Source: a virus (lineage: Duplodnaviria > Caudoviricetes). From it: a stretch of 64,000 nucleotides of DNA. A model generated the notes under the pieces. That model was not told the origin of the DNA, searched no databases, and saw nothing but the letters and a program-made list of their open reading frames with translations. This document shows, piece after piece, positions 6,271-34,564 of this stretch (position 1 is its first letter; each line of letters starts with the position of its first letter). A program made the translations under genes and the position numbers. The stretch covers positions 5,693-69,692 of the IMG/VR virus record IMGVR_UViG_3300033121_000147; one strand, 5' to 3'.

Positions 6271-6626
6271 TACTTCCTCCCTGGAAGGTATACCCAATGG
6301 CCTGGATCGGATGAGCTGTTCTGAAACCCATACTTGTAAGCGTTGGCTCTCAACCACTCAAGCAGATCTGCGTGATTCTCTGTGTAGAAGTCTACTGTCA
6401 AACCCCATCCATTGTCACTAGTACCCGGAACAGGCTGCAGTTCGTACGGAAGGTAGGCGTTTTTCACAGAGAACTTGACGCCATCCTTGTCAGCGTTAAC
6501 CCACATAGAGCGAAAAGCTCTAGCTGCTGGCTCTAATAGGACGAGACGGTCGTACCCAATGGGAACGAGGAGCTCCTCGGGAATGCGACCGTTGCTGAAG
6601 CTGCGTAGTGTGTCGTAGTTTATCAT
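6270..6626 (-). CDS. M15/VanY-like peptidase homologue with degenerate catalytic motifs
   Basis: NGRIP, AARAF..M...A..DGV, PGTSDNGWGLTVD, WL..NA.KYGF, DPGHW.Y; ATGA overlap with the upstream gene. Confidence 0.75.
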   Translation of the reverse strand: MINYDTLRSFSNGRIPEELLVPIGYDRLVLLEPAARAFRSMWVNADKDGVKFSVKNAYLPYELQPVPGTSDNGWGLTVDFYTENHADLLEWLRANAYKYGFQNSSSDPGHWVYLPGRK

Positions 6627-8029
6627 GCGTCTTGTCCAGTGAATTCCTTGTAGATGGTCTTAGCTTGGGCAATACGAGCTGGCTGTGGACCTCCTGCGTG
6701 ACGCTCGAACTTGGTTTCAAAGGCAAGTGTTGCGTCTGTGATGTTAGTGGTGGCGAACAAGATCCTGCCAGCCTGATTCTCACTACCAGTAGTGAGAGAC
6801 TCCCACAAGAAATCAAGCTGGAAGATGATGTCACTGGGCTGCTTACCTTGCGCGTTGGCGGCAGGAAGAATCTTGGTTCCTGGAGTCCACTGCACAATAC
6901 CATAACCACGTGAAGTCGGCATTGGGCCGTGTGATCCACCTTCGATGATATCAGGAGAGAAGCCAGACTCAGACTGCATGTTGCCCATGATACCAGCGAT
7001 TTGGAATGGAGGGATGTTCTTCGCTACGAAGTAGTTCCAGATTGTCGACTTAGGGTCAGTGCCTGTTACCGTGGTTCCACCTACTGGCAACTTGCTAACG
7101 ATGAAGTCAGCGTACTTTCCGTAGTTAGCCGCACCGCTGTAGTGAATGTGATCCCCACCGAGGAGACCTTGCGGGTCTCCACCACTGATATCGTAAGCCT
7201 GTGGGTCCTTATCCTCGCCCCATAGGAACTTGAACTGGCTGATGACAGTCATACCAGATGATTGGGCCTTCGCATAGATGGCTGTGTTGGCTTCCTTACC
7301 GAAGGCTTGACTGATACCGGAAGCAGCGACGTCAACCCAGTAAATAGGAGCAGTACTGTTGATCTGCTTGATAGCATTGAACAGAGTGTCTATGTTGCCA
7401 GCGAAGTTGTTCTCATGGTTGGTACCTAAGGCTATGACAATGTGCTTAGCGTCTTTGATGAAGGCTGCGTCGTCTGCGATGGCTTCCAGGCCCGATCTGC
7501 GAACTTGAAGACCCGCCCCCGAGATACTTCTACCACCATCGTAGTTAACCTTGTTTGGTGAATACCCTTTAGCGTTCAGCTTGTCTGAAATGCCGCCCAA
7601 CGTGAGACCGTAAGTCAATGAGTCACCCATAAAGTACAGTTGACCAGGTGGAATGCCAGATGTGCTTGGCGTAGGGGCTGGAGTACCCGAGGGGACCTCA
7701 ACTACTACATCTGGTTCTTCGTTTGGGACACCTATGAACACATCGTAAGGACTCAGGGCCTTGTCTTCTACGAAGTACTTCTCAGTTCTCAGGCCTTCAA
7801 AGTCCTTCGAGAGAGTCTGGTTGAAGAGATCAAGAGTCTGAGCCTTGGGCTTGTATAGGGCCTTGCCTTGTAGGATATCCGAGATACTGTAGGTCGTCAG
7901 GGTAGACGAACCTAGGGCCCTAGGAGCCGAACCGCTCGTTCTAACTGGTCCGGCCTCACTTGTCTGGATCCTGCGTACGCCCGTGATCCACGTCTCTTCA
8001 TTCTGGTAGTCGTCGAGATTGAGTCCCAT
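6623..8029 (-). CDS. Modular hydrolase 3: shared N-terminal module + SGNH/GDSL esterase + phage tail lysozyme domain
   Basis: N-terminus MGLNLDDYQNEETW; SGNH blocks FMGDSLT, GGRS, LGTN, DHIH; lysozyme-like IAGIMGNMQSES, GYGIVQWT, QLDFLWESL, FETKFER. Confidence 0.85.
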   Translation of the reverse strand: MGLNLDDYQNEETWITGVRRIQTSEAGPVRTSGSAPRALGSSTLTTYSISDILQGKALYKPKAQTLDLFNQTLSKDFEGLRTEKYFVEDKALSPYDVFIGVPNEEPDVVVEVPSGTPAPTPSTSGIPPGQLYFMGDSLTYGLTLGGISDKLNAKGYSPNKVNYDGGRSISGAGLQVRRSGLEAIADDAAFIKDAKHIVIALGTNHENNFAGNIDTLFNAIKQINSTAPIYWVDVAASGISQAFGKEANTAIYAKAQSSGMTVISQFKFLWGEDKDPQAYDISGGDPQGLLGGDHIHYSGAANYGKYADFIVSKLPVGGTTVTGTDPKSTIWNYFVAKNIPPFQIAGIMGNMQSESGFSPDIIEGGSHGPMPTSRGYGIVQWTPGTKILPAANAQGKQPSDIIFQLDFLWESLTTGSENQAGRILFATTNITDATLAFETKFERHAGGPQPARIAQAKTIYKEFTGQDA

Positions 8030-8030
8030 G

Positions 8031-8888
8031 CTAGCTAAGTCCTATGTATGGATAGGGATTCACATTTCCAGAAGTAGACCAGCGGGGATAGGGATCCGTA
8101 TCAGCGATACCCTCATGTACCTCAAAGTGAAGATGAGGACCTGTCGAGTAGCCAGTAGAGCCTACTAGGCCCACGACATCACCCTGCTTGACAGCTATTC
8201 CATCAGCGGTAGTATACCCACTAAGGTGCATATAGGTAGTCCACTGCCCACCTCCATGATTGATGAAGAGAACGTTACCACCGCCGCCATAGGCATCGTT
8301 GGGAACTTGCTTAACCGTGCCATCCTTCACCGCCAGAATCTTGTCACCCATAGCTCCGTTGAGATCTACGCCAGGATGTCCCCCTGGTAGATGCCATCCT
8401 TGACTGATTCCATGGGCTGCCACTCCTCCTTCTAGTGGGAAGATCATGCCAGCTGCAGATGGGGGACCAGACGGAACACCAGGACCAGAGCTATTCGTCG
8501 CGGCTGTATTACCAGCCTGCTGAACTGCCTGACCTACACCGATGTTGGAGAGACCAAAGCTAGTGTCTCCTGGAGGACCTACGTACACGTCATAAGGTGA
8601 GAGTGCCTTGTGCTCGTAGTCTCCGTAGTTGTAGTCCGGGTTGTTCTCGGCTCTTAGTCCAGCTAACTGCTGAGAGATTCGCTGGTTGAACAGGTCATAG
8701 GTTGATCCACGCGGCTTATAGATCAGCATGCCGCTCATGGCGTCTGCTATTGATGGAGTAGTGAGTCCTTGTCTGGGCGCTTGTCCAGAAGCGCTAGTCC
8801 TAACGGGGCCAGCCTCGCTTGCTTGGATACCCCTAACAGCGTTGACCCAAGTCTCTTCGTTCTGGTAGTCATCGAGGTTAAGACCCAT
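8031..8888 (-). CDS. Modular hydrolase 2: shared N-terminal module + M23 endopeptidase
   Basis: Start placed at ATG 8888 (MGLNLDDYQNEETW, AAGGAAG RBS, 11-nt overlap with the upstream gene); HPGVD, YMHL, GSTGYSTGPHLHFEV are M23 motifs. Confidence 0.9.
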   Translation of the reverse strand: MGLNLDDYQNEETWVNAVRGIQASEAGPVRTSASGQAPRQGLTTPSIADAMSGMLIYKPRGSTYDLFNQRISQQLAGLRAENNPDYNYGDYEHKALSPYDVYVGPPGDTSFGLSNIGVGQAVQQAGNTAATNSSGPGVPSGPPSAAGMIFPLEGGVAAHGISQGWHLPGGHPGVDLNGAMGDKILAVKDGTVKQVPNDAYGGGGNVLFINHGGGQWTTYMHLSGYTTADGIAVKQGDVVGLVGSTGYSTGPHLHFEVHEGIADTDPYPRWSTSGNVNPYPYIGLS

Positions 8889-18925: not shown

Positions 18926-19323
18926 TAAAACATCCTGTTCAAACGTAGCAACTTGTTCATCTTCTCAAGCGAACTTCCAACAGACCCACCGTGAGTCATG
19001 TCGAAGGCACGTTTAGCCACCTTGGCCTTATGCACGAAGGCGTCCACCTTAGGAGCTCCTACCATACTACCACGACTCAATGTACGTGGTTTCAGATACC
19101 CTGTTCCTTCTGCTTGTACGTGAGCATCTCTGAACCTACCACCCCAACCAGCAAAGCTCTTCTCTGGCATTCCACCAATAGTGCCAATGCCGATACCTTC
19201 AGAACGAGAAGAAGGACCGACTGAGGGTCCTCTTCTGTAACCAATGGCTGTGGCCCTGGCATTCTCCATCATCTTTCGGCTGGGTTGAGAACCCTGGCTT
19301 GGGACGCTAGTTGTCTTACCCAT
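18925..19323 (-). CDS. Small basic Gly/Ser/Arg-rich hypothetical protein
   Basis: 132 aa; TAATG coupling at both ends; low-complexity basic composition. Confidence 0.7.
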   Translation of the reverse strand: MGKTTSVPSQGSQPSRKMMENARATAIGYRRGPSVGPSSRSEGIGIGTIGGMPEKSFAGWGGRFRDAHVQAEGTGYLKPRTLSRGSMVGAPKVDAFVHKAKVAKRAFDMTHGGSVGSSLEKMNKLLRLNRMF

Positions 19324-22300
19324 TAAAAGGCTCCGTTAAGGGCACTTGGCATGCCAGATTGATCGTAGTTGCGACTGCTATAAGTAGACCCGGTTGACTG
19401 AGATCCAGTGTAGCGCTCTGCGCTCTTGCGGAACCCTCTGTGGTCTCCGCCTCTGGTGTTGATCTTGTACTTCACACCTCCCCCTTGTGGAGGATGGTAC
19501 TGATCCATAGTCTCGGTTGGTCTGTCGTAGTAGTCTTCGTAGGCGCTACCACCCGGTAGCAGTGGTGGCCCCTCCATGTCGTGATTGGTTCTATCCTTCA
19601 CTCCTCTGTATATAGTAGAGGCTAAAACCACAGCACCCACCGCTAAGCCTGCTTTTCGTACTCCTGGTAGATCAGCAAAGCCCTTCAGGTGCTCCATCGC
19701 ACTCATGGCTTGAGGTCCGCGAGCAAAGCCCTTACCATTCATGACGCCATTCTTCACTGCATCAGCGATGTCGTAAGCTGCAGCCATAGCTCCGGCACGC
19801 TTCTCTCCTGGTAACTCAGTGAAGCGGCTGGCTCCTGACTTGAGGAAGTCTTCAGTGATAGTTGACGCCTCACCCATCACATCACGAGCTACTCGCACAT
19901 GCTCTGCTGTATAGAAGTCTGACTCACCCAGGCTAGAGCTGGCATTACGGTAATCGAAGGAAGCTCTAGCTACAGCCTGAGCCCTAGCCAATGTACCTTC
20001 CTGCACTGCCGAGAAAGCCGAACTGCCCTGGTACTGCTGAATGAACGCCCCCATAGCCTGAGTAGCGCGGCTACCCATGCTCCCGCCCTCTAGGAACTCA
20101 GAGAAGGTACGCTGTACAGCTTCTCTAGCTCTGGCATTCTTGAACATGTCGCTAGACGTGTCCTCACCGACCATGCCAAGCATCATCTCTTGAATCTCGT
20201 TAGGGATACCAACACCACCAGCTTCTACTGCAGCTCTGGCATTGTGGTAGGACTCCGCCATAGCACGAGCATCAGCTAACGCCTGCTGATCAAAGGCAGT
20301 GCGCTTGATAGCGCGCTGGAGATCCATATTCTCAGTGTACTTGCGCATCAGATACTCTCTGTGCTCGTCAGCCTGTCGCTGGAGCTTCATGGCTCTACCG
20401 AAGGGAGCGTTAGCCGCCTCCTCGGCGGTCATGATGATGTCGTCCATACTCGCATCGGGGTCTACATTGGCCAGCATCTGAGGGATGAGTGCCCTCATGC
20501 GCGGGTTGAATCGATGCTCCAGACGAAGAGGATCCAACTTGACGCCAGTGATCCTGGCAGTCTCAACCATGTCCTGCATCATGGCAAGAGCGATAGCCTC
20601 AATACCCTGAGGAGTAAGAGAACCATAACTCTCACTGAAGCCCTTGGTCAAGGGGTCAATAACAGCCTCTTGAATGAGGTACTTGAGAGGACTAGCCATA
20701 GTCTGTCCGGCGTCCTCGACTTGCTTAGCATATTCGTCAGCCATCTCTCGGACGAGAGAGTAATTACCCAGGACTCCTGAACCACGTTCACGTACTAGTC
20801 TCTGACTCCAATCGCTTAACTCGTATGGATCCAAAGCCACAGGGCCACCGAATAGAGCAATCACGTTGTCTGGCGTATCTTTGCTAGATAGCATGCTGCC
20901 GAACTTGGCAATCTGAGCATTGACGTATGACTCGTAATTACCTGGATTCAGTAGCTCCATACCAGCAGGGACATGAGCGCTCCTAAGGAGGTCTATGTCA
21001 TCGGCGCTAAGACGAGGGACATTGGCTTTGATTACGTCGTAAGCCGCTGACTCGATGTCTGAGATCTGCTGACTGACCTGTGGCAAGAGAACATTTCGCA
21101 GGGCGTCGTTCTCCTTCTGGGCAGCTACGATCTCATTCGCCTTGCGCTTTGGGTCACGCATGATAGCTTCATTGGCATCTATGCGAGCCTCGTAGCTTCT
21201 ACGCTGCTGAGCTACACGTGGGTGGATGTCATAGAAGCCTACGTTGGCTAGAGACTGCTGAAGAGCAGTGTTCTGACCGGGTTCAGCCGTAGACATACGA
21301 GCAAGCTCTAACACACTCTGCCTTGTCGGTCGAGCCACCGCGACCTCGCCACTAGCCATAGGGTTACGGATGTTCACGCCAACAAGCTCACCAGTAGCCT
21401 CGTCGAGACGAAGCATTGAGGCGAGGGAGTCGTCGAAGTCGGCACCGCCGTGAGCTTCATACAGTTGCCGTACAAAGTCCTCTCCGTTGTAAGTGAGTCC
21501 GAACCGTGGATCTACAGAGAACTCACCCTCTGCTACATGTTGACCAGTAGCGAGGTAACCCCAGATGTCGCCCTGCATGTGCATACGGGCTGAAACTGGA
21601 ACATGACCATAGAGTTGCCCTTCGTGCTTGGCGCCGCCTAGGAGTGATTCGCGCATACCTTCAGCGACCTCGCGAAACATGGGCTCATGAGTAGCTGTGT
21701 TGAGACCCATTCTCTGCATAGTGAGGATTCGCTGAGCTCGTGACTGTTGGTTCATGAGAGATGCGTCATCAATGATACCGAACCCACGCATGATGTCTTT
21801 GATGTCGTCCGGAGCATTAGGGTCGTAACCACTGACGCCGAGTAGCTTACGAAGAGAGGTCTCGTAACCAGCAGGAAGCTCTCCTGTAGTAGCCATGTGC
21901 TCCAGCTGACTCTCATACCAAGCTGTACTCTCTCCAATAACCCCAGCGTAGTTGGGTCCGCCGTATACCTGCTGTCCATAGGCTGCCATAGTCTGAGCGT
22001 CGGCATTGACGCCACCGGACATGTGAACAGGCTTGAGTGAGATATGGGTAGGAAGATTACCACGGCCATACTGACCAGTAAGGTTCGATTGAACAGTGAT
22101 GATGTCAAGCGAATTCGGATCAACCGGACCGACCCCAAACAGTGGAGAAGCACGGCCTACCCATTCGTTCCATTCTCCGCCAAGCGCTGGTACGTTCACA
22201 TCACCCTTGATCATGGCGTCTTGTAGATGCTGGAATTGAGGGTCCGCGATACTTAGACCAGTAACACGGAAGTCCTGTAGACGTCCGCCCTTCTGCGCAA

Positions 22301-23192
22301 TAGCTCTGAGCTTGCTAGCTTCAGCTTTGGTAGCGGCGATGTTCTTCTTGGCTAGTCTGAGCTCTACAGGAGACAGACCAGCCAGCGCAGCCTCGTCTGC
22401 TTTAGCGCTAGCCTCCATCTTGTCAGCCATGTCCATAAGCACTTGGGGGTTCATGATAGACATACCTGAAGCGTTACGTTCAGCGACCTTGGCGTCTGTG
22501 AGTAGAGACCTGACACCGCCCATCTGAAGAGCTAGAGGGTTGTCATCAGCGAAGACACCAACACGAAGTGGCGAGTCTAATGCTGCGTGCATGGCTTCTG
22601 GGTTACCCAGAACCTTCAAGCGCTTCATGAGCTTTACGAAGCTCGCCTCGTCACTGGGGTTGAAATTGTAACCTGCTGCCTTGAAGGCCTCTCGAATCTC
22701 TTGCTGGGTCAGCTCATCTTCACCACGAAACATACGCAGGACGGTGGTCGTCTCGTCGTCAGGGATAGCAAACCCATACGTCTTGCCTCCTCTGACAAAG
22801 TGCTCTGCCTGAGCCGCCGTAGCCCCTGTACGTACCCCATAGGCCTCGCGAACAATACTGACGTCCTGATAGCCAGGAACGCCTCTAATGTCCCTAGAGA
22901 CCTGTCTCAGCTCATCGTAGTCGTATGAACCAGTAGGAGAGAGTGCTCGCACTGGTCGGCCGGGTAAGGTGTCGATGACCTCTCGCTTCTTGAAGCCAGA
23001 AGCCTGCAGCCAAGCTGCTGCCTCCATCGGAGTCTCAAAGTACTGACCCTTCACCGGTCCCTTGAACACCTGCTTACCGCTGACAGGGTGAGACACCATC
23101 TCCAACGTACCCAAACTACGCCCCATCATCGAGGATAGGACGTGCTTCCAAACTGGGTCGTTATTGAGATCGTGGATGCTATCGCCTGCCAC
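19323..23192 (-). CDS. Putative single-chain two-barrel (YonO/RdRP-like) RNA polymerase, probably virion-associated
   Basis: Ordered motifs ASGMSIMNP (aa ~241), QDFR..IKGD (R309, K329), VAEGEFSV, GGADFDD (aa 582-588), IRNP (R609), VLGNYS..ADEY..QEAVIDPLTKG (aa ~807-851); TAGTG coupling to the TMP; hydrophobic helix near the C-terminus. Confidence 0.6.
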   Translation of the reverse strand: MAGDSIHDLNNDPVWKHVLSSMMGRSLGTLEMVSHPVSGKQVFKGPVKGQYFETPMEAAAWLQASGFKKREVIDTLPGRPVRALSPTGSYDYDELRQVSRDIRGVPGYQDVSIVREAYGVRTGATAAQAEHFVRGGKTYGFAIPDDETTTVLRMFRGEDELTQQEIREAFKAAGYNFNPSDEASFVKLMKRLKVLGNPEAMHAALDSPLRVGVFADDNPLALQMGGVRSLLTDAKVAERNASGMSIMNPQVLMDMADKMEASAKADEAALAGLSPVELRLAKKNIAATKAEASKLRAIAQKGGRLQDFRVTGLSIADPQFQHLQDAMIKGDVNVPALGGEWNEWVGRASPLFGVGPVDPNSLDIITVQSNLTGQYGRGNLPTHISLKPVHMSGGVNADAQTMAAYGQQVYGGPNYAGVIGESTAWYESQLEHMATTGELPAGYETSLRKLLGVSGYDPNAPDDIKDIMRGFGIIDDASLMNQQSRAQRILTMQRMGLNTATHEPMFREVAEGMRESLLGGAKHEGQLYGHVPVSARMHMQGDIWGYLATGQHVAEGEFSVDPRFGLTYNGEDFVRQLYEAHGGADFDDSLASMLRLDEATGELVGVNIRNPMASGEVAVARPTRQSVLELARMSTAEPGQNTALQQSLANVGFYDIHPRVAQQRRSYEARIDANEAIMRDPKRKANEIVAAQKENDALRNVLLPQVSQQISDIESAAYDVIKANVPRLSADDIDLLRSAHVPAGMELLNPGNYESYVNAQIAKFGSMLSSKDTPDNVIALFGGPVALDPYELSDWSQRLVRERGSGVLGNYSLVREMADEYAKQVEDAGQTMASPLKYLIQEAVIDPLTKGFSESYGSLTPQGIEAIALAMMQDMVETARITGVKLDPLRLEHRFNPRMRALIPQMLANVDPDASMDDIIMTAEEAANAPFGRAMKLQRQADEHREYLMRKYTENMDLQRAIKRTAFDQQALADARAMAESYHNARAAVEAGGVGIPNEIQEMMLGMVGEDTSSDMFKNARAREAVQRTFSEFLEGGSMGSRATQAMGAFIQQYQGSSAFSAVQEGTLARAQAVARASFDYRNASSSLGESDFYTAEHVRVARDVMGEASTITEDFLKSGASRFTELPGEKRAGAMAAAYDIADAVKNGVMNGKGFARGPQAMSAMEHLKGFADLPGVRKAGLAVGAVVLASTIYRGVKDRTNHDMEGPPLLPGGSAYEDYYDRPTETMDQYHPPQGGGVKYKINTRGGDHRGFRKSAERYTGSQSTGSTYSSRNYDQSGMPSALNGAF

Positions 23193-26100
23193 TAGTTATA
23201 CGCTCCTGATTGAATGTCTAATCTAGTCCCTGGATAGGGAGTGTAGACCGGAACAATGTCTCCATGCATACCGTGCTCTCTCATGAGTCTTCTTAGTTGC
23301 ATGGCTGTGTGTGAAGTTCCCTTAGAGAAGTTGGGGTAGCTTGGGTTAACGAGATTAGCCTCTTTGACTTGCTGTGGGTAGTAGCCCATCTCTGACATAT
23401 CAATGCCCTGGCTTTGCCCCATCTTGATCTTGACCTGTTCCATACTAGTACCAGGCTGCCAGCCCTCCCAACCTGGATCTGGTAGCTCATGCTGAGAGAA
23501 GTACTTCTCTAGGTCAGGACGCTGCTCCACGGGTTGACCCCACGCAGCCTCATAGAAGCGACGCTCTAAACGGCCAGCAGTAGACAGAATCTGAGCGTGT
23601 TCTGACTGAGGAGCCTGGATCATGGCCTCGAAGTACTCGCGCTTACGCTTGGGCATGGAGAGCATTTGCTGCTGGATGTCACCACTGTAGATGTCACCGC
23701 CATACATAGTTCCCTTGGACTGGTTCATCCAGTACTGAGCTGCCGACTGGTCACCCTGCTGCTGTGCCTGGTTCTGAAGTCTCGTGTACTTCACGTAGTT
23801 CAGCATGTCGGAGTACTCTTCGAGCGCCAGTTCCTTACGACGCTCAGTTGGGATATAGCGCTGACCAGTGATGGCCTGATAACCCTTACCGACGGTACCG
23901 GCAACCAGACCTGTAGCAGCGCCAATCAAACCACCAACGGCCTTAGCTTTACCTGATCGACCGAAGAAGGTACCAGCAGCTCCAAGGAACAGTGCAGCTC
24001 CGATTGGGTTACGCTGTGTGGCGCGACGTGCCATAGGAGCAATGAACCCCTTGATAGGGTGCTGCCACTCAGGGAACGTAGCACCATACACACTCTCACG
24101 CTCCCAATCCTCTACCGCAGTATGGTGAGGTAGGAACTTGGTGTTGAAGAATGAGTCCTGGTGAGCAAGCTTCTCAAACTCTGATCTAGCGAAGAACTCC
24201 AACTCACTCATACCCAGCTCAGCGGCGCTGGTGTCACGGTACTTATAGGGAGTGAACTGATGAGCGTGGCTCATCTCTTCAACCTGAGAACGTGTGGTGG
24301 CGATCTGACCACCAGCATTCGGACCAAGCATTCGGTCGATGGCGCGGTATTCGGTAGACCATGGAGCTACGTCACCCAGGATCTTGTGGATGTCTTTGAT
24401 GCCATACTTGCCGTACTGATCTGGATGTAGTCGATTGAATCGCTCGTACCCCTTACCAGGCAGACGCATCTCGCCCTCGTTCACCTTGGTGTATGGATCA
24501 CCTTGGTGGAAGTTGAGGTAGTAGCCAGAGCCATCACCAGGTAACCATGGAGCTGTCTTAGCCATGGTGTTAGGGATGGGGTTGATGAACTGAGTACCTG
24601 AGCGCTCCTTAGGGATGAATCGTCGGGCGATCTCCGAGAACTCAATGTTGGCCCAGTTACCTTCCATCGGTGACGTCATGTCACCTAGACCACCAAGGTT
24701 CAGATCCCAGAAGCCTCTTGTTGATCCGTAGGCCTTGTTGGCTGACTCCAGGACGGGAGCATTGGGGACGAAGTCCTGCTCTCCATAGCCCAACTGTGAG
24801 CGCAAAGCACCGAAGGCGAAGCCGTAGATACCAGCCATTTCCTGAGCTTGGTATCCAAACTTCCCAGCCTGGTACTTGAAGCTTCCCTCGCTGAGTGGCT
24901 GTACACCGGGAACGATGCGAGGAGGCATAGCACCACGTTGTAGTGGCATAGCGTAGGCCGCTTGTGAGTACTGCTGGTTGATAGAGCTGATGGCCTCAGC
25001 GGTCATCACACTACCGGTGGCCGGTGACACCTTTCCAGCACGAGACATGCTGGAGTTGTAGGCGCTAATAGAACTGTTCACCATTGGTGCAGAGCCAGCC
25101 CGGCCAGGAGAACCTACTCCTGAAGAACCCTTGACAGTCGAGTAGCCCCCGCCAGAGAACCCACCGCCACCACCCTGGCCACCAATAACGGCTGATGGTG
25201 CAGCCTGGAAGGCACCAGCGTCACCGATTGGAGCGTAACCAGCTAGACCCTGTGACAGCTCCTCTTCGTGCATGGTGAGGCGAGGCTTTAGAACGCGGCC
25301 AACAGTGTTGTTGAGGAGAGAGGTTACAGGACCCCAAGGACCAGAGAAGTAGTCACCGCTGACAGGGTATGGACGGTCCTGATAGTGCTTGCGCTCGAAG
25401 CGGTATGGGTCCAGAGGGCGTAGAGGAGAGAAGTCATAACCGAAGGCCAGACGCTCTAGAGGACTACCAAAGGTCTGGTCTGTGTAAGAGTAACCAGACT
25501 TCAGTCTTCTCAGCCACGATGGACGGTAGTACTGTACTTTACCGCCCTTCCATGGAGTGTTACCCAGCGGCCACCAGCGACCAGCACGGATAGGTACCTC
25601 ACCGTTCTCTAGCTCTTCCTTCTTCTGTTGATAGGTCTGCCCTCCTGGAACCGCTCCAGCAAGGACCATCTGAGCGTGAGCTACCACATCAGCGGCATGT
25701 CCTAGAACGAATGGAGAGTAGACTCTATCTCCGTTGGCGTCCTTAGGGTTGACATAGCCACCAACAGTGCGGTCAGCGGTCAGAGCTATAGTCCCAGCAC
25801 CAACGATAGGCAGTACGCGCTTACCCAGCAGGCCTCGCACATACAGATCTACAGGGCTCTTGTACTTGGTTGGATCTAGCGAGAGACCCACGATGTCAGC
25901 GTATCGGTTGAGACGCTCAACCATGTGGCCGCTGACAATGGAGGTTCCTGAAAAGCCTTCAGGATCGTTCCACGTACCAAAGCCTAATGCTCCAGCTACT
26001 GCCTTACGTGGGTTACGTGCAAAGGTAGTGCCAAAGGTTGGCACTAGCGCAGTACGTGAACCGAATGGGTTGTACTCTGTGCCAGCGTACTCGTAACGTG

Positions 26101-29100
26101 AAGTTCCAAGACCCCTACGTAGGTAGGGGTGGAGCTTCTGAAGGCGACCCGACATAGTGTCGACATGACCCTGTTGCAGGTCTTTAGCGAGATCGCCAAC
26201 ACTGTCAGCTCTACGCCCAGTCATCAAACTGGCTAGGGTGGCCTGGAAGTTCTCTAGTGTGGTTCCCTCTGAACGGTACGAGGAAACGTGACTATAGTCA
26301 ACCTGCAGAGACAGCATGGCTGCTCGCGCCTCAATGTAGTCAGCTCGGGATAGCTGACCGTTTGAACGCATGACCTGCAGATCGCTGGTTAGGCTTGAGA
26401 TGGTCTGGTCGAAGTCTCCGTTGTTAAGGAGAGCGTCACGCATGAGGAAGTACTTCTCAGCGTCGACCTTAGCCTTATCGAAACGAGTGTTGATCGTACC
26501 GCTTCGTGAGGCTCCGGGTACTGGCTCAGTCCAGAACCCTGGTGTGGTGCCACCTCGAAGATGCTGATCCACGAACATGGACTGACCACGACGCATAGAG
26601 GACTGAACCTCTGACGGCATGGTGGACATGCGCTTCACGTCCTGGCGGACTACAGATCCCATCAACTCCTGTAACTGAGTTGGGGTATGCACGTCAGCCA
26701 GGTTAACCTGACCCTTAGGTAGGGAGGGAAGGTCTTCTGTGACGTCGAACTTGAACAGGTCCTTGAAGGAGCTGGACTTCTGAACTGAGAGAGGAATACC
26801 CTGAGTCTTGACGTTCGATGACAGCAGGTTCAGGGCATGAGAGACTTCAGCTGGTGTTCGCCTGATCTGATTCGCCGCATTAACAACCGCCCCCGTAGAG
26901 GGATCGAGAGTTAGTAGCTCTCCACCCTCGGTGACCGTCTCGCCTCTTAGTAGCCTGGCGAAAATCATTGGGTTGTTGATGTCTGAACGACGGTTCTTCA
27001 GACGCTTAGCCCATCCGAAGAGCGAGTCAGGCTGATCCTCAGCAATGTTGAAGATGCTCTTGAACTTGCTCCAAGTGTTGCTACGAGATTGGTCTGCTGG
27101 TGCCGGACCCTTACCGAGATCTCCAACAGCCAATCTCAGATGGTGAGCTGCAATCGAGTTACCGCTGGCTGCGAAAGGTCGGAAGGATCCACTCAGACGG
27201 TCATGGATGAGGGTGTGGTTGTCGTACGAGTACGAGGTGACCGAACCCTTAGAGCCATGAATGCCCTTCTTGCTCCACATGTGGAAGCTAGAGTCATAAG
27301 GCTTACTGCCGATGAAGGCTTGGTTTGAGGAGCCTGGAATGTACTGCAACAGAGGAGAGTCGCGCATAGCTCGACGACTCTGGTGACCCAGCATGTTGAG
27401 TGGACTGAAGTGCAGCAGCGGGACCTGGAACTCGTCAGCGATCGTGTCGGTGACCTTGTTGAACTTCCGCTTGATGGCGTTGACATCAATGATCTGACCA
27501 TGCTTGGTCTGGAACACGCCACCCAGACCGTAGTCTCCTACAGACCCTACTGGATCCTGGGTTCTGATGTGGTCCAGCATGTCTTGCAGATGTTGCTGCT
27601 GCTTGTCGTTCTTGGCGATCTGGCCATGGCTGAGAGCATCGGCCATACCGAGAGACTTGAAGCCGAACAGATTACGTCCACCAGCATGCCAAGGCTTACC
27701 GATTGAGCCATTGGTGACCAGGAAGGCTCGCTGCATGTCATAGTTGTTGGCGCCAAAGCCATAGCTGGCCAGGCGAGAAACCACCGCACCGTGAGACACT
27801 GGTCGACCGTGCTGGTCGAGCATGTTCATGCCGAGCTGTTGAGCTGTCCTACGATTGAGGAAGCGCTTCTCGTTCTGACCTAGAGCTCCAGCGAAGATCT
27901 CATAAGAAGGCTTACCCTGACTTGCCAAGGTAGCCGCAATGCGCGGCACCTCGTTGTTGTACATCGTGTTCCACTCATTAGCTATCCTCTTGTTGACAGC
28001 CTGAGAGAAGCTCTTCTTCTGGAACATGGAGTCAACCTGTTGCAGGGCATCAGGCATCACATGGCGCAGCTTGGCAGCATCCTGGTGATTCTTGAGACCC
28101 AGCTTGTCGAGGATGTTCCCCATGAAGTCTTGGTGACTGGTAAGGATCTCGGAATCGCCAATGTGGACTCGTTGAGTCTTGTCTGTCTTACCATAGAGAG
28201 ATGGTGGCTCTACCTTCACCATCTTCTGGATCTGTTCGATACTCTCTGTCGTCACACCAGCAGAACGCAACTTCTGCTGGAAGTGAGAGTTGTACAGCCC
28301 GCTCAATTGCCCCTTGTAGAACTCACCGCCAGCGAACTCACCGCTGAGGCGCCCATTCTTACCAACCTGAACAGGGGCTACTGCTCCCAGAGAGTTCAGC
28401 TGGGCCAGAAGGTCCTCGAATGGAGAGGACGACATACCCATAGCTCGACCTAGAGCTGCGGTCTTCCCAGGGTTGTTAGCGTACTTAGCTCTGAACTGAC
28501 GGTGACCAATCTGGTTCACCTCACGAAGGGCATCGAACTCGTCGCCCATCTCATTCCACTTACTACCAGCGGCCTTCACACCAGACTGGATACCCTTGAA
28601 GGGACCAGGCAGATAGTCAAGCGCGCTGTGGTTCAGCAGCTTCTGAGAAACGTTCTTCCATTTGAGATTCTGAGCAACCTTCTTCTGCTGTACGGCCTTA
28701 GCTGCCGCGGCTGCACCAGAACGGTTCTTGTAGAGCGTACCCACAAGGTCCATACTGGCAGCGCGGGCTTCGTTAACGCCAGCCGAGAAGGAGCCTGTTA
28801 CCTGACTAGAGTATTGGATGCCCTGGTTGAGGATGGTACCAGCATCATGACCTACCTCACCGAGGATAGCCTGGAGGCTAACTGTACCCTTGTACGCTTG
28901 TTGTTGCCATGGGGTTAGCTTGGTGACATCATCACCCAAGGTCATCAGTCTACGCCAAGTCTGGCTACCTGCAGACTGGCCGAGCTCCAGTGGCGAGAAC
29001 ATGAAAGCGGCGTTCTTGACGCTCTGAGTTACGAAGTCACTGATGACGTCAGCGGGGTTGGCCCAATTGACCTTCTGCTTATCCTCGTTACCGAAGAGCG

Positions 29101-29713
29101 GATCGATGACAGCTCTCTGAGCCAGATAAGCGGCAGGGAGCTCGTAGGGGAGACGTCGAGCCTGAGACACCATCTTCTGTTGGATCTCATCGCTGTAACG
29201 CCAAACAGCAGGCATCTCTTTGCCTGCTCGCCTTGCCGACTCTTGCTCTGCCTTCGTGAAGAAGAAGCCTCGTACAGCTTGTGGATTACCATCGCTATAG
29301 GCGACTCCGCCTACCTTGTAAGCCCCTTCGGCATCTTCGATGAATAGCTTAGAAGCATTCGTGCCAGCGTAGTACTCTGACTTACGAACGATGCCCTGCC
29401 AGTCATCGATGTAGTCTCGAACCTCGCGCAGGCTCTTGATGGCGTTGGTCTTCCATGGCGTGTGCTCAGCATTCTCGCCAAGCTTGACCATAAGCTTGAC
29501 ACCACCATGCTGAACGACCTTACCTGCTACGTGGGCTGCGACTACAGTCGCAGCAGCGGTAGCAAAAAAGCGCATTACCGGGTGTTGGTAAAGCGCTTTG
29601 CCGATAAGGCCAGCCTGAGGATTGATTCCCTCAGTATCGCCTTCCCTCCAGCCAACCTGCTTGCTCGTTACACCGAAGCCCAGTTGGTAGTTGGGACCTT
29701 GATCTCTAATGAT
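23192..29713 (-). CDS. Tape measure protein-like (2127 aa from ATG 29575; ~2173 aa if the upstream ATC start is used)
   Basis: Very long Ala/Gly-rich helical protein directly after two tail chaperones; hydrophobic Gly/Ala-rich segments (IGAALFLGAAGTFFG, GGLIGAATGLVAG). The frame is open up to 29728. Confidence 0.75.
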   Translation of the reverse strand: MIRDQGPNYQLGFGVTSKQVGWREGDTEGINPQAGLIGKALYQHPVMRFFATAAATVVAAHVAGKVVQHGGVKLMVKLGENAEHTPWKTNAIKSLREVRDYIDDWQGIVRKSEYYAGTNASKLFIEDAEGAYKVGGVAYSDGNPQAVRGFFFTKAEQESARRAGKEMPAVWRYSDEIQQKMVSQARRLPYELPAAYLAQRAVIDPLFGNEDKQKVNWANPADVISDFVTQSVKNAAFMFSPLELGQSAGSQTWRRLMTLGDDVTKLTPWQQQAYKGTVSLQAILGEVGHDAGTILNQGIQYSSQVTGSFSAGVNEARAASMDLVGTLYKNRSGAAAAAKAVQQKKVAQNLKWKNVSQKLLNHSALDYLPGPFKGIQSGVKAAGSKWNEMGDEFDALREVNQIGHRQFRAKYANNPGKTAALGRAMGMSSSPFEDLLAQLNSLGAVAPVQVGKNGRLSGEFAGGEFYKGQLSGLYNSHFQQKLRSAGVTTESIEQIQKMVKVEPPSLYGKTDKTQRVHIGDSEILTSHQDFMGNILDKLGLKNHQDAAKLRHVMPDALQQVDSMFQKKSFSQAVNKRIANEWNTMYNNEVPRIAATLASQGKPSYEIFAGALGQNEKRFLNRRTAQQLGMNMLDQHGRPVSHGAVVSRLASYGFGANNYDMQRAFLVTNGSIGKPWHAGGRNLFGFKSLGMADALSHGQIAKNDKQQQHLQDMLDHIRTQDPVGSVGDYGLGGVFQTKHGQIIDVNAIKRKFNKVTDTIADEFQVPLLHFSPLNMLGHQSRRAMRDSPLLQYIPGSSNQAFIGSKPYDSSFHMWSKKGIHGSKGSVTSYSYDNHTLIHDRLSGSFRPFAASGNSIAAHHLRLAVGDLGKGPAPADQSRSNTWSKFKSIFNIAEDQPDSLFGWAKRLKNRRSDINNPMIFARLLRGETVTEGGELLTLDPSTGAVVNAANQIRRTPAEVSHALNLLSSNVKTQGIPLSVQKSSSFKDLFKFDVTEDLPSLPKGQVNLADVHTPTQLQELMGSVVRQDVKRMSTMPSEVQSSMRRGQSMFVDQHLRGGTTPGFWTEPVPGASRSGTINTRFDKAKVDAEKYFLMRDALLNNGDFDQTISSLTSDLQVMRSNGQLSRADYIEARAAMLSLQVDYSHVSSYRSEGTTLENFQATLASLMTGRRADSVGDLAKDLQQGHVDTMSGRLQKLHPYLRRGLGTSRYEYAGTEYNPFGSRTALVPTFGTTFARNPRKAVAGALGFGTWNDPEGFSGTSIVSGHMVERLNRYADIVGLSLDPTKYKSPVDLYVRGLLGKRVLPIVGAGTIALTADRTVGGYVNPKDANGDRVYSPFVLGHAADVVAHAQMVLAGAVPGGQTYQQKKEELENGEVPIRAGRWWPLGNTPWKGGKVQYYRPSWLRRLKSGYSYTDQTFGSPLERLAFGYDFSPLRPLDPYRFERKHYQDRPYPVSGDYFSGPWGPVTSLLNNTVGRVLKPRLTMHEEELSQGLAGYAPIGDAGAFQAAPSAVIGGQGGGGGFSGGGYSTVKGSSGVGSPGRAGSAPMVNSSISAYNSSMSRAGKVSPATGSVMTAEAISSINQQYSQAAYAMPLQRGAMPPRIVPGVQPLSEGSFKYQAGKFGYQAQEMAGIYGFAFGALRSQLGYGEQDFVPNAPVLESANKAYGSTRGFWDLNLGGLGDMTSPMEGNWANIEFSEIARRFIPKERSGTQFINPIPNTMAKTAPWLPGDGSGYYLNFHQGDPYTKVNEGEMRLPGKGYERFNRLHPDQYGKYGIKDIHKILGDVAPWSTEYRAIDRMLGPNAGGQIATTRSQVEEMSHAHQFTPYKYRDTSAAELGMSELEFFARSEFEKLAHQDSFFNTKFLPHHTAVEDWERESVYGATFPEWQHPIKGFIAPMARRATQRNPIGAALFLGAAGTFFGRSGKAKAVGGLIGAATGLVAGTVGKGYQAITGQRYIPTERRKELALEEYSDMLNYVKYTRLQNQAQQQGDQSAAQYWMNQSKGTMYGGDIYSGDIQQQMLSMPKRKREYFEAMIQAPQSEHAQILSTAGRLERRFYEAAWGQPVEQRPDLEKYFSQHELPDPGWEGWQPGTSMEQVKIKMGQSQGIDMSEMGYYPQQVKEANLVNPSYPNFSKGTSHTAMQLRRLMREHGMHGDIVPVYTPYPGTRLDIQSGAYN

Positions 29714-31843: not shown

Positions 31844-32470
31844 TTAAGCCCTGAAGGAGATGATGTTGACATCAGCGGCGGCGTCTACACTGAAGTAGGT
31901 TGTGTCAGTAGGCTTGTCTACACCAGAGGGAATGTAGCTCGTTAGTGGTTGGATACCACGGGCCATATATGTGAAGGTCTGCTCTACCATAAGGTCATCC
32001 ACTGACATGGTAGCACCTTCGTCAACGATGCTCACACCATAGATCTTGAGCCTTGAGAATGAGCCTGTCTCGTTAGAGAAGGAGAGGATAACATCGAATG
32101 GGGGCAGCATGTCAGCCAAACCGTACAGCGACTGCTGCATCAACTGGCGATACTGCTTAAGGCGATAGAAGGTGTATTGGTTGAACTGAGTGAAGATCAG
32201 ACTCCCCGCAATCGTACGGGGACCCTTAACAAAACCACGAGGGTTCACGTTACCGAGCGTACGTACTGGTGTGTTCTCGCGGTGGATTGAGTAAGAGATG
32301 GTTTGAAGCTCGCCAAGAACTAGTGGCTCCTCTTCGAAAGGCACTAGTATGGTCGCCACAATGTCTGTACCTGAGTACGTATCGTAGGTGACGTTGCTAT
32401 CCGTGTATGGATAGTTCTGTTGGTAGATGGCGTTGGTGGCCGCTGACTGGTTAGTGAGACCGAAGTCCAT
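31844..32470 (-). CDS. Tail tube-like paralog 2
   Basis: TYSGTDI, SYSIHRENTPVRTLG..RGFVKGPRTIAGSLIF, LPPFD, EQTFTYMARGI. Confidence 0.75.
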   Translation of the reverse strand: MDFGLTNQSAATNAIYQQNYPYTDSNVTYDTYSGTDIVATILVPFEEEPLVLGELQTISYSIHRENTPVRTLGNVNPRGFVKGPRTIAGSLIFTQFNQYTFYRLKQYRQLMQQSLYGLADMLPPFDVILSFSNETGSFSRLKIYGVSIVDEGATMSVDDLMVEQTFTYMARGIQPLTSYIPSGVDKPTDTTYFSVDAAADVNIISFRA

Positions 32471-32572: not shown

Positions 32573-33232
32573 TTAGATACGGATAACCGTTGGGTCTAGA
32601 GCGTTAGTTGGGTTGGTGAAGTCAGCTGGAGTTCTGGGCTGACCAGTTGCGTACATGGGACCAATCTCGCGAGCTACATACGTCATTGTCTCCTCAATGA
32701 CGATGTCATCCATCGAAGCTCCAGAACCTTCGTTTAGAAGCTCTACACCATAGATTCTACGGACGGCGGCCTGACCGTACTCGTTGGCGAAAGTGATGGT
32801 GATATCGAATGGCGGGATCTGATCCGCGTAGTATGGGAAAGCGGCTTCGACGCTAAGTGACTGCTCCGCTGCAGGGGTAATGCCTCGGTGAGTAACCTGG
32901 CCTTCGCCTGTGCCGGGGAGGATGTTCGAAGTACGAGTGAAGTACTTGGCACTGTTATCGCCCTTATGGTCAAGCAGCATCTTGTACAGTGACGGCTGAT
33001 CGAAGACCGTGAAGATCATTGACCCAGCAATACCGCGCTTACCACGAGAGAATGAGCGTGGGTTAGGTGAACCCATGGTATAGATCGGGGCCTTCTCACG
33101 AGTGATCGACCAAGTAATGCCTGACAGAGTACCGATGATTGTTGAGCCGAACGTGCAAACGATATCTGCGCCAGAGAATGTGGTGTAGGTATCTGTAAAC
33201 GAACTGAGCCCAGTTGAGCTAGGTGCAGCCAT
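32573..33232 (-). CDS. Major tail tube protein (paralog 1)
   Basis: TFSGADI, TWSITREKAPIYTMG..RSFSRGKRGIAGSMIF, IPPFD; follows the sheath; AAGGAG RBS. Confidence 0.8.
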   Translation of the reverse strand: MAAPSSTGLSSFTDTYTTFSGADIVCTFGSTIIGTLSGITWSITREKAPIYTMGSPNPRSFSRGKRGIAGSMIFTVFDQPSLYKMLLDHKGDNSAKYFTRTSNILPGTGEGQVTHRGITPAAEQSLSVEAAFPYYADQIPPFDITITFANEYGQAAVRRIYGVELLNEGSGASMDDIVIEETMTYVAREIGPMYATGQPRTPADFTNPTNALDPTVIRI

Positions 33233-33289: not shown

Positions 33290-34564
33290 TTAGATCTGGA
33301 TTGTAACGCTGATCTCGATTGTACGCAGCTCGAATGCTGGACGTAGGGAGAGATCGATGATAGCTCTGTTGTTCTCTGCGTCCCAAGTGATTGCGAAGTC
33401 TGACGACAGAAGCGCGCCAGCCTGCTGCATACCAATCAGGCCACGACTCACTGCGGTCTCCAGGGCGTTACGAGTCTCCATCGTGCTAGCTTCACCAACG
33501 AATGGCTGAGTTAGCTGACGAATTGTCTGTACCGCATCGAACACGATACGCACGGTCGTAAGACGCGTGTACTGTGAAGTCTCATCAGCGTAAGTCTGAG
33601 CGTCTACCCACGTTGGGACGCGGCTATAGTTCAGAGTTACTGGCACTAGACCGAGGTCGATAATCGACTGCTGCTGAGTACGGGTTGGGTTGTAACGAAT
33701 CTGACGTACGTTAGGAATGATCTTCCCCGTGGGGGCTGACCATGAGTTACTCTGGACTAGCCAACCTGCATACAGGGCAGCGCCGTTAGAGTAACCGAAG
33801 TCATCATCAATGTCGTAGCTGGTAGGCGTTAGCTCCGCAGCGACGATGTTGACGTACATACCTACGTTGATGATTCCGCTATCGTCCCGAGCCACCAGAT
33901 TAGAGAACCCAAGGTGAGTTGCTACCTGTGCTGGTGTCATTCCGCCTGTAGTTCCTGCTGCTCCGATGTAGGGCTTAACGCCCATGACTGCGAAGAGAGG
34001 GTTCGATGTTGCGACGATATTGGCTACCTTGTTAGCGACCTGGGCTGCCCAGCTACGAGCTACAGTTGAACTGTTATTGGCATGGAAGCCAAACTCAGCG
34101 TCATCGCCAGGAGTAGCAGGTGACTGCCATTCGGTAGGACCACTGCCTCGACCCCATGGTACTACGATGTCAGCTTGAGAGGCTTCAACGGCCGTCCAAG
34201 CGTCATCCCATAGGTCACCAGCCGTATAGCTTGATGCGGAGATCGTTCCTAGAGTGTGGTTAAACACGGTATCGCTAGGAAGCGCGATCAGGTAGATGCG
34301 CTGGGCGCCACCTGACAGAGCCTCTAGGAATCCACGATGCAGATCCGAACCTTCACCGAAGGCATTAACTACCTTGGTCTCGTTCGTAGCTACGTATACA
34401 TCAAGACTGGCCACATTGACAGAGTTGATATCCGTACCATCAGCCGTGTCGTTGGCAGTGGTGCGACGTCCCAGGATAGCCAGCTTTGGCCCGTCGGGGA
34501 TGTTTGTTCTAGCCAGGTTTGAGAACTTATCGATAATGGTTGTATGAACGCCTGGGAGTGACAA
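33290..34564 (-). CDS. Tail sheath protein
   Basis: MSLPGV, AFGEGSDLHRGFLEALSGGA, LTTVRIV, sheath-type C-terminus IDLSLRPAFELRTIEISV; TTG start with GGAGGT RBS. Confidence 0.9.
   Translation of the reverse strand: MSLPGVHTTIIDKFSNLARTNIPDGPKLAILGRRTTANDTADGTDINSVNVASLDVYVATNETKVVNAFGEGSDLHRGFLEALSGGAQRIYLIALPSDTVFNHTLGTISASSYTAGDLWDDAWTAVEASQADIVVPWGRGSGPTEWQSPATPGDDAEFGFHANNSSTVARSWAAQVANKVANIVATSNPLFAVMGVKPYIGAAGTTGGMTPAQVATHLGFSNLVARDDSGIINVGMYVNIVAAELTPTSYDIDDDFGYSNGAALYAGWLVQSNSWSAPTGKIIPNVRQIRYNPTRTQQQSIIDLGLVPVTLNYSRVPTWVDAQTYADETSQYTRLTTVRIVFDAVQTIRQLTQPFVGEASTMETRNALETAVSRGLIGMQQAGALLSSDFAITWDAENNRAIIDLSLRPAFELRTIEISVTIQI

Follow-up and report, generated by a model that had tools for sequence, protein, structure and literature searches.

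Polymerases carried by phages decide the dependence of an infection on the host transcription machinery in its first minutes. Only a small number of two-barrel polymerases have been shown by experiment to be virion proteins: the multisubunit enzymes of the phiKZ-like phages, gp66 of a podovirus of the crAss-like group and gp96 of Thermus siphoviruses. Here we analyzed a 64,000-nucleotide stretch of phage DNA (positions 5,693 to 69,692 of IMG/VR virus record IMGVR_UViG_3300033121_000147, the whole of which we call the window) with regard to an open reading frame (ORF) of 1289 amino acids (aa) that lies among tail genes. With a probability of roughly 0.55 we consider that this gene encodes an active single-chain two-barrel RNA polymerase (RNAP) that is carried in the tail and ejected to start early transcription.

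In the Thermus phage P23-45, the virion RNAP gp96 is part of a fusion with the tape measure protein, with which it presumably enters the cell, and an earlier note on this DNA had cited this precedent correctly (PMC10770324). The second polymerase of the same phage, gp64, is a non-virion protein encoded by an early gene (PMC10770324). In the cellular polymerase QDE-1 the functional residues comprise D709, R738, K743 and K767 of barrel 1, the Pro-gate R962-S-P964, the barrel 2 triad D1007, D1009 and D1011, a bridge helix at about 1082–1091 and D1116 of the trigger loop (PMC9508822).

The gene in question is located as follows:

19323..23192, minus strand: ORF of 1289 aa (P0001), predicted single-chain two-barrel RNA polymerase, based on the translation, AlphaFold2 models and fold matches to QDE-1, RDR2, gp62, gp64, gp66 and gp96

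In the ORF listing this frame begins with a GTG codon. At its start the minus strand reads CAGGAGCGTATAACTAGTGGCAGGC, with the GTG contained in TAGTG, and the start codon therefore overlaps with the TAG stop of the upstream 2127-aa ORF (23192..29575). The GTG is preceded by AGGAG at a distance of about 10 nt and is backed by the homologues, the Met of which aligns at column 1. The place of the ORF, its overlap with the upstream stop and all motifs quoted in the earlier note were borne out by the ORF listing and the translation. These motifs are ASGMSIMNPQVLMDMADKM (residues 241–259), QDFRV (R309) followed by MIKGDV (K329), VAEGEFSV (residues 554–561), HGGADFDD (residues 581–588, with GGADFDD at 21429–21449), IRNPMASGEV (residues 608–617) and VLGNYSLVREMADEY...LIQEAVIDPLTKG (residues 807–851, 20640–20774).

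Structures were modelled with AlphaFold2 (AF2) using an alignment of 30 sequences, once for aa 1–1190 and separately for aa 225–640. The longer model, referred to as the whole model, reached a mean predicted local distance difference test score (pLDDT) of 82.2 and a predicted template modelling score of 0.76, with a pLDDT of 90–96 in the barrel regions. For the shorter core model the pLDDT was 87.2, and across both models the barrel regions lie at 90–97. When the whole model was compared with the PDB by Foldseek, ranks 1–12 were all occupied by two-barrel single-chain polymerases, with QDE-1 (E 3.9e-4, probability 0.99), phi14:2 gp66 (1.5e-3) and maize RDR2 (3.9e-3), and at lower ranks Arabidopsis RDR2, gp96 and gp64. 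Independently of Foldseek, an exhaustive comparison against 48,161 representative PDB chains was carried out with VIA-align. Here maize RDR2 came first (Z 10.1, 559 aligned residues), P74-26 gp62 second (Z 9.6, 403 aligned) and QDE-1 sixth (Z 8.9, 624 aligned), and the VIA search of the PDB gave Z 9.7 for P32 gp64 and Z 7.5 for gp96. The other matches of the whole model with a Z of at least 8 cover only about 70–120 residues, nearly all of them on a helical hairpin at aa 637–741.

With the core model, QDE-1 was ranked 1 of 48,161 (Z 8.9, 261 aligned), aa 230–597 corresponding to QDE-1 699–1020. RDR2 followed with Z 8.3 (233 aligned, ending at aa 599 opposite RDR2 848), and gp62 and gp64 both reached Z 6.8 over about 199 aligned residues, ending at aa 598–599. 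For the whole model as well as for the core, alignments of more than 200 residues among the 48,161 chains were obtained with two-barrel polymerases only. The long fold matches altogether are QDE-1, plant RDR2, phi14:2 gp66 and the polymerases of the P23-45 group; from these matches the protein is predicted to have a two-barrel catalytic core. In BFVD the same fold was found in two proteins of uncultured phages (E ~1e-19), both uncharacterised, and the next matches were segments of crAss-like polymerases. The assignment as a two-barrel RNAP, which had been made from motifs alone, is upheld by the AF2 models and the fold searches, and the predicted fold appears nearest to the clade of QDE-1, the RDR proteins and the P23-45 group.

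An exhaustive HMMER search of 1.84 billion representatives identified 27 relatives of 1150–1500 aa, all of them metagenomic. A word-indexed profile search recovered three close relatives only, and a scan of IMG/VR gave no further loci of the polymerase family. Since tblastn with five family members found no match in 50,697 phage records, the family has no cultured relative. A search for longer, fused forms of the polymerase found none, which is weak evidence.

Conservation was assessed in the alignment of 30 sequences, which has a mean column identity of 21%. Fifteen columns are invariant: the start Met, K190, R191, G243, R309, K329, G582, D585, D587, D588, R609, P611, G615, E616 and D846. Nearly invariant are G330, D398, Q400, L808, E842 and I845. 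Most of the invariant columns fall within the motifs pointed out in the earlier note, which speaks against these motifs being a product of chance: the aspartates of its DFDD loop, K329 and R609 are invariant, and so is D846 of its AVID motif, with I845 nearly so. Judged from the alignment, this distribution is the pattern of a working active site. Along the chain the following parts can be distinguished, all of them on the minus strand:

22620..22625, minus strand: invariant K190-R191 on helix 182–191, about 50 residues before barrel 1 (alignment and AF2 model)
21963..22475, minus strand: barrel 1 (beta-like double-psi beta-barrel), aa 240–410, with S242-G243, R309, K329-G330 and D398-x-Q400 (AF2 models, core alignment and conservation)
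22290..22448, minus strand: helical hairpin of about 50 residues, aa 249–301, inserted after the first strand of barrel 1 (DSSP of both models)
21327..21605, minus strand: barrel 2 region (beta'-like double-psi beta-barrel), aa 530–622 (element order in both models)
21429..21449, minus strand: GGADFDD, aa 582–588, presumed metal-binding loop (conservation and structural alignment)
21345..21368, minus strand: R609-N-P611-M-A-S-G615-E616, an RxPxxxGE loop between strands 602–608 and 617–622 (invariant residues and AF2 model)
20970..21284, minus strand: long helical hairpin, aa 637–741, of variable length among homologues (AF2 model and alignment)
20640..20783, minus strand: aa 804–851, GxLGxYSxxRxxxD...ExxID (conservation)
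19326..19850, minus strand: C-terminal module, aa 1115–1289 (conservation and comparison within the window)

The invariant R309 and K329-G330 are located on strands of barrel 1 in the AF2 model. Going by their order and the range of the alignment, they would correspond to R738 and K743-G of QDE-1, and D398-x-Q400 may correspond to N795-x-Q797. The three invariant Asp residues D585, D587 and D588 lie in a loop that follows helix 570–580 and precedes strand 589–597. The core alignment starts at aa 230 opposite QDE-1 699 and ends 9 residues past D588 and likewise 9 residues past D1011. Core alignments extend as far as aa 597–599, opposite QDE-1 1020–1024 and RDR2 848, with the Asp loop 9–11 residues before the alignment end, as is the case for QDE-1 D1011 and RDR2 D834 in theirs. 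Because of these start and end offsets, DFDD sits at the place of the QDE-1 DYDGD and G243 near D709. In the models D585–588 are accordingly positioned opposite QDE-1 D1007–1011 and RDR2 D830–834. Further upstream, the K190-R191 helix is possibly the counterpart of the auxiliary helix D1AH, which in QDE-1 holds the product strand through R671 (PMC9508822). Downstream, aa 804–851 show a spacing pattern similar to the QDE-1 bridge helix and trigger loop and are a candidate counterpart of these. Both helical hairpins are insertions relative to QDE-1. The hairpin at aa 249–301 draws the many short helical-hairpin matches in the fold searches with the core model, and the one at aa 637–741 matches generic coiled-coil hairpins only.

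If the gene encodes an active polymerase, R309 and K329 of barrel 1 would hold the RNA 3' end and the phosphates of the incoming nucleoside triphosphate (NTP), and D585, D587 and D588 of the DxDD loop in barrel 2 would bind the catalytic Mg2+ ions. The RxPxxxGE hairpin probably replaces the missing RxP loop of the Pro-gate, and the LGxYS...ExxID segment would take the part of bridge helix and trigger loop. Catalysis as well as template and product are what we infer here for the protein.

A metagenomic homologue of 1127 aa (P0005) is shorter and starts at about aa 365 of the 1289-aa protein. The R and KG motifs of barrel 1 are missing from it, while GGFDLDD, RQPSAIQE and, at the C-terminus, the PLLPGGSAYE module are retained. 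Possible explanations are that the gene is split, that the gene call is truncated or that this form has its barrel 1 in another polypeptide.

A number of results weigh against an active polymerase. To begin with, no sequence method ties the family to any named protein. The ORF had no match in Pfam and PHROGs, Pfam searches with all 30 homologues gave chance coiled-coil matches only, and a sequence-profile search of the PDB returned a single chance match (E 2). PF05183 and PF00623 gave no match in the 69.7-kb IMG/VR record to which the window belongs, for PF05183 at E up to 10, and PF05183 (the family of cellular RNA-dependent RNA polymerases and QDE-1) matches none of the 30 homologues. Comparison of the family profile with gp66, YonO, RpoB and RpoC by hhalign yielded a probability below 1% in each case (0.5% for phi14:2 gp66). 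Likewise, when hidden Markov models (HMMs) of six motif blocks were run against these four proteins, each with 2000 shuffles, none was significant over the shuffled sequences. The only hint was provided by the RxP block, the best match of which in gp66 is the Pro-gate strand of gp66, with 23 of 2000 shuffles being equal. Since the block HMMs do not beat the shuffles, we treat the likeness of the motifs to known polymerases seen by eye as description and not as evidence. Feature look-ups in the ESM-Atlas scored at most 0.80 for the polymerase and are leads only. On the structural side, Foldseek with the core alone was not significant (QDE-1 E 0.097), the first, weak matches including QDE-1, gp66 and several E. 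coli beta chains. Z scores of 8–10 are middling, and the weight of the VIA-align matches comes from aligned length and rank.

As to the Pfam profile, PF05183 does not detect YonO in the SPBc2 record NC_001884 at E up to 1. As YonO is an experimentally shown two-barrel RNAP, this profile has to be regarded as a blunt one that misses phage members.

The missing sequence link and the insignificant Foldseek result for the core would be expected if the protein had no relation to polymerases at all. AlphaFold would then have over-interpreted a shallow alignment of only 29–30 sequences, and the conserved residues would stem from another enzyme or from a function in tail assembly. The Z scores do lie in a range that helical proteins can reach by chance. 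We hold this reading to be very improbable. Both models, which are independent of each other, show high confidence in the barrel regions, the alignments of more than 200 residues single out two-barrel polymerases among all chains compared, and the invariant residues fall on catalytic positions of the matched polymerases, with E. coli beta chains even among the weak Foldseek matches.

To the results that count against activity the active site adds its own. The earlier note had remarked on an Asp loop that lacks one residue compared with DxDxD and on an RxP that follows this loop instead of preceding it, and both oddities are real and family-wide. The loop is DxDD (GGxD[LF]DD) in 30 of 30 homologues and the canonical DxDxD spacing occurs in none, compared with DFDGD in E. 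coli beta', DFDID in gp66 and DNDGD in YonO, as taken from the fetched sequences. Before the Asp loop, where the Pro-gate is usually found about 30–45 residues upstream, there is no conserved RxP, and R536 varies. The invariant R609-x-P611-xxx-G615-E616 is found on a hairpin behind the last canonical barrel strand, 21 residues after the Asp loop and beyond every sequential alignment to known polymerases. The residue before G243, at the site of QDE-1 D709, is D or E in 25 of the 30 sequences and Ser in the 1289-aa protein and its four closest relatives; loss of D709 weakened the activity of QDE-1 but did not kill it (PMC9508822).

A loop without the canonical spacing, a missing canonical Pro-gate, a Ser in place of the acidic barrel 1 residue in one subclade and a gene at the position of structural tail proteins would all suit a polymerase-derived structural or ejection protein that no longer polymerizes. 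In such a protein the conserved residues would bind metal or DNA, for example in order to grip the genome end in the tail. However, the three Asp residues, R309, K329, RxP..GE and D846 are invariant at an overall identity of about 20%, and gp96 of P23-45 is an example of a polymerase that is borne by the tail and has full activity. Furthermore, the DxDD loop is common to all 30 members and thus does not reflect recent decay. We therefore judge an inactive descendant to be improbable, and the inactive relic that the earlier note had left as an option is unlikely because the residues of catalytic type are invariant.

The order of the strands offers a way to account for the displaced RxP in an active polymerase. 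The stretch between aa 397 and 529 is free of predicted strands in both AF2 models. From aa 530 onwards the elements are strand 530–541, a helix, strands 557–561 and 565–568, helix 570–580, the Asp loop, strands 589–597, 602–608 and 617–622, and a helix. As modelled, this order agrees with a circular permutation of barrel 2, its first two strands and helix having moved behind its last strand, and a permutation would mean that the RxP loop is contributed by another part of the chain. An added hairpin that reaches the active site would agree with the order as well. A third option is that the RxP..GE hairpin is the counterpart of the SPANGEP hairpin of E. coli beta', which follows NADFDGD at a distance of 29 residues; the two are alike in position, but beta' has no partner for the invariant Arg. 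More tentatively, the family may constitute a separate two-barrel branch with a DxDD metal site, a permuted or otherwise rearranged barrel 2 and a displaced, NTP-sensing RxP, which in jumbo phages would travel as a second passenger of the tail beside the tape measure. We regard this as possible and would not yet count on it.

The window belongs to a virus record of 69.7 kb that is 33% complete according to CheckV, which puts the phage genome at about 210 kb. All genes around the polymerase ORF are located on the minus strand and form a structural module. It starts with the large terminase, the portal and the major capsid protein, followed by two sheath-like genes and two paralogues at the position of the tube, then continues with the 2127-aa gene, the 1289-aa ORF, a 132-aa gene and a 3010-aa gene, and ends with three wall hydrolases and a Baseplate_J wedge gene. 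The phage is contractile-tailed. The immediate neighbors of the polymerase gene are:

23192..29575, minus strand: 2127-aa gene in the tape-measure slot (position after the sheath and tube-like genes)
18925..19323, minus strand: 132-aa gene without known family, coupled by TAATG to the polymerase stop
9893..18925, minus strand: 3010-aa gene for a hub-like giant protein, coupled by TAATG to the 132-aa gene (phrog_20474, E 3e-123)

The junctions between these genes are TAGTG (2127/1289), TAATG (1289/132) and TAATG (132/3010), and the four genes are thus translationally coupled. None of the four (9893–29575) has a Pfam domain. A gene of 132–144 aa directly follows the polymerase in every relative examined. 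The entire block of giant gene, polymerase, 132–144 aa gene, gene of 2800–3030 aa and wall hydrolase recurs around the homologues P0004, P0013 and P0027, of which P0027 is among the most distant members that the search of the family yielded. The 2127-aa gene had no match in Pfam and PHROGs, and an ESM-Atlas look-up gave a weak feature-based lead to tape measure families (score 0.85), which is a lead only. Its position and this lead suggest a tape measure. It is homologous to the 2542-aa neighbor of P0027, with 31% identity over 1794 aa.

The sequence NGDFDQ (26399–26416, minus strand, aa 1053–1058 of the 2127-aa gene) resembles NADFDGD and was considered as another polymerase signature. The homologous 2542-aa protein beside P0027 does not conserve it, and the likeness is therefore put down to chance.

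At its end the polymerase carries a module of 175 residues that within the window is found in the 1289-aa ORF only. It contains a hydrophobic, Gly/Ala-rich segment at aa 1181–1195 (AGLAVGAVVLASTIY) and a motif that is nearly invariant, KDRTxxDMxGPPLLPGGSxYE. Tape measure proteins have transmembrane segments, and by analogy with these the module might anchor the protein to the tail lumen, the hub or a membrane.

In the reading that we favor, the active polymerase would be made together with the tail proteins, be carried in or on the tail alongside the protein of the tape-measure slot and enter the cell at infection. There it would transcribe the first phage genes independently of the host polymerase, as for P23-45 gp96 (PMC10770324). 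Packaging in the virion, ejection and the role in early transcription are suggested by the conserved, translationally coupled position between the genes of the tape-measure slot and the hub. An active two-barrel polymerase that is not delivered with the virion, made late for transcription in the next round, for primase-like synthesis or for RNA-dependent synthesis, would agree equally well with the fold and with the conservation of the active site. In addition, the nearest solved folds include the RNA-dependent QDE-1 and RDR2 as well as the non-virion gp62 and gp64. Such a polymerase would, however, have little reason to be coupled on both sides to giant genes of the tail module in a block that is kept in the relatives examined, nor would a soluble transcriptase need the conserved hydrophobic module at the C-terminus. 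Non-virion phage polymerases are also normally early genes, e.g. gp64 of P23-45 (PMC10770324). We consider a polymerase that stays out of the virion unlikely.

In the remaining part of the module, two adjacent paralogues (31844–32470, 208 aa, and 32573–33232, 219 aa, both minus strand) directly follow a sheath gene and both match phrog_9206. The label of this group, "major head protein", may be wrong, since the position of both paralogues looks like that of a tail tube. Of the two sheath-like genes (33290–34564 and 35580–37214, minus strand) the first matches sheath PHROGs with E 9e-34 and the second only faintly, and a gene for a virion protein of 294 aa is located between them. Between the 3010-aa gene and the baseplate genes there are three consecutive wall-hydrolase genes (6623–9891, minus strand). 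Their products are an endolysin-like protein, an M23 peptidase and a protein in which a GDSL/SGNH-like domain is joined to a phage tail lysozyme. These enzyme domains had already been noticed from the letters of the sequence and are confirmed by Pfam matches.

In full-text searches of the literature, including a survey of jumbo-phage genomics (PMC7824862) and a 2026 review on jumbo phages (PMC13282480), we found no paper describing such a gene. As far as the models can tell, the particular features of this system are the QDE-1/RDR-like fold, the DxDD loop, the displaced RxP and a polymerase gene that stands by itself after a full-size gene in the tape-measure slot. The polymerase family is unannotated in the resources examined, and such phages are therefore currently scored as having no polymerase. 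If the favored reading is true, delivery of a polymerase through the tail would be a wider strategy that extends beyond one lineage of Thermus siphoviruses and reaches giant myoviruses. The family would also represent a natural experiment on the most conserved signature of cellular transcription, with DxDD in place of DxDxD and RxP displaced while the other catalytic residues are invariant. Provided that the enzyme is active, it would show how far the universal active site can be rebuilt.

Compared with known systems, SPbeta YonO is a short single-chain DNA-dependent two-barrel RNAP from a phage (839 aa). By eye it has the same order of motifs as the protein described here (DGCGMM, R266..K271-G, the Asp loop, GEYSN and IDFAKT), which is not statistically supported. 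Its GEYSN and IDFAKT lie about 30 residues apart in the order seen in aa 804–851, the block HMM not being significant, and the barrel 1 Lys and the Asp loop are separated by 264 residues in YonO, compared with 256 in the protein described here. In YonO, RSP is found at the canonical place 41 residues before DNDGD, whereas in the phage family RxP comes after the loop. The YonO gene does not lie in a tail module, and the protein is not known to be packaged.

The best structural matches, Neurospora QDE-1 (7Y7P/7Y7S) and plant RDR2 (7W84, 7EU0), are cellular polymerases of RNA interference. Their likeness amounts to Z 8.9–10.1 with about 560–650 aligned residues for the whole model and Z 8.3–8.9 with 233–263 aligned residues for the core. 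They share the order of elements, namely barrel 1 with the presumed counterparts of G243, R309 and K329-G, barrel 2 with an Asp loop preceded by GG, and a late helical ID/VD segment. In contrast, identity in the structural alignments is about 10–12%, and PF05183 has no match to the phage family. QDE-1 and RDR2 have DxDGD where the phage family has DxDD, and R962-S-P964 of QDE-1 is located 45 residues before the Asp loop whereas RxP..GE of the phage family is located 21 residues after it. Unlike QDE-1 and RDR2, the phage protein has the extra hairpins at aa 249–301 and 637–741, a gene in a tail module and the hydrophobic C-terminal module.

gp66 of Cellulophaga phage phi14:2 (6VR4) is a single-chain two-barrel RNAP that is packaged in the virion, and its gene lies in a series of genes for giant virion proteins. 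It is longer (2180 aa versus 1289 aa) and has the canonical order, with YRIPN followed after 45 aa by GSDFDID. It comes from a crAss-like podovirus, the head of which is its presumed site of packaging.

P23-45 gp96 (8H2N), gp64 and P74-26 gp62 (8F72, 8F5M) are single-chain two-barrel polymerases, like the fold predicted for the phage protein. With the whole model, gp62 and gp64 reach Z 9.6–9.7 over about 400 aligned residues and gp96 reaches Z 7.5 over 327. gp96 has DFDGD (PMC10770324) compared with DxDD in the phage family, and the two have no sequence similarity. In gp96 the polymerase constitutes the N-terminal part of the tape measure; here it is a separate ORF after the gene in the tape-measure slot, overlapping with it in TAGTG. 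Instead of a fusion of the gp96 type, the same split between polymerase and tape-measure-slot gene is found in the relatives examined. Finally, P23-45 has the tail of a siphovirus, whereas the phage analyzed here combines a contractile tail with a genome of about 210 kb.

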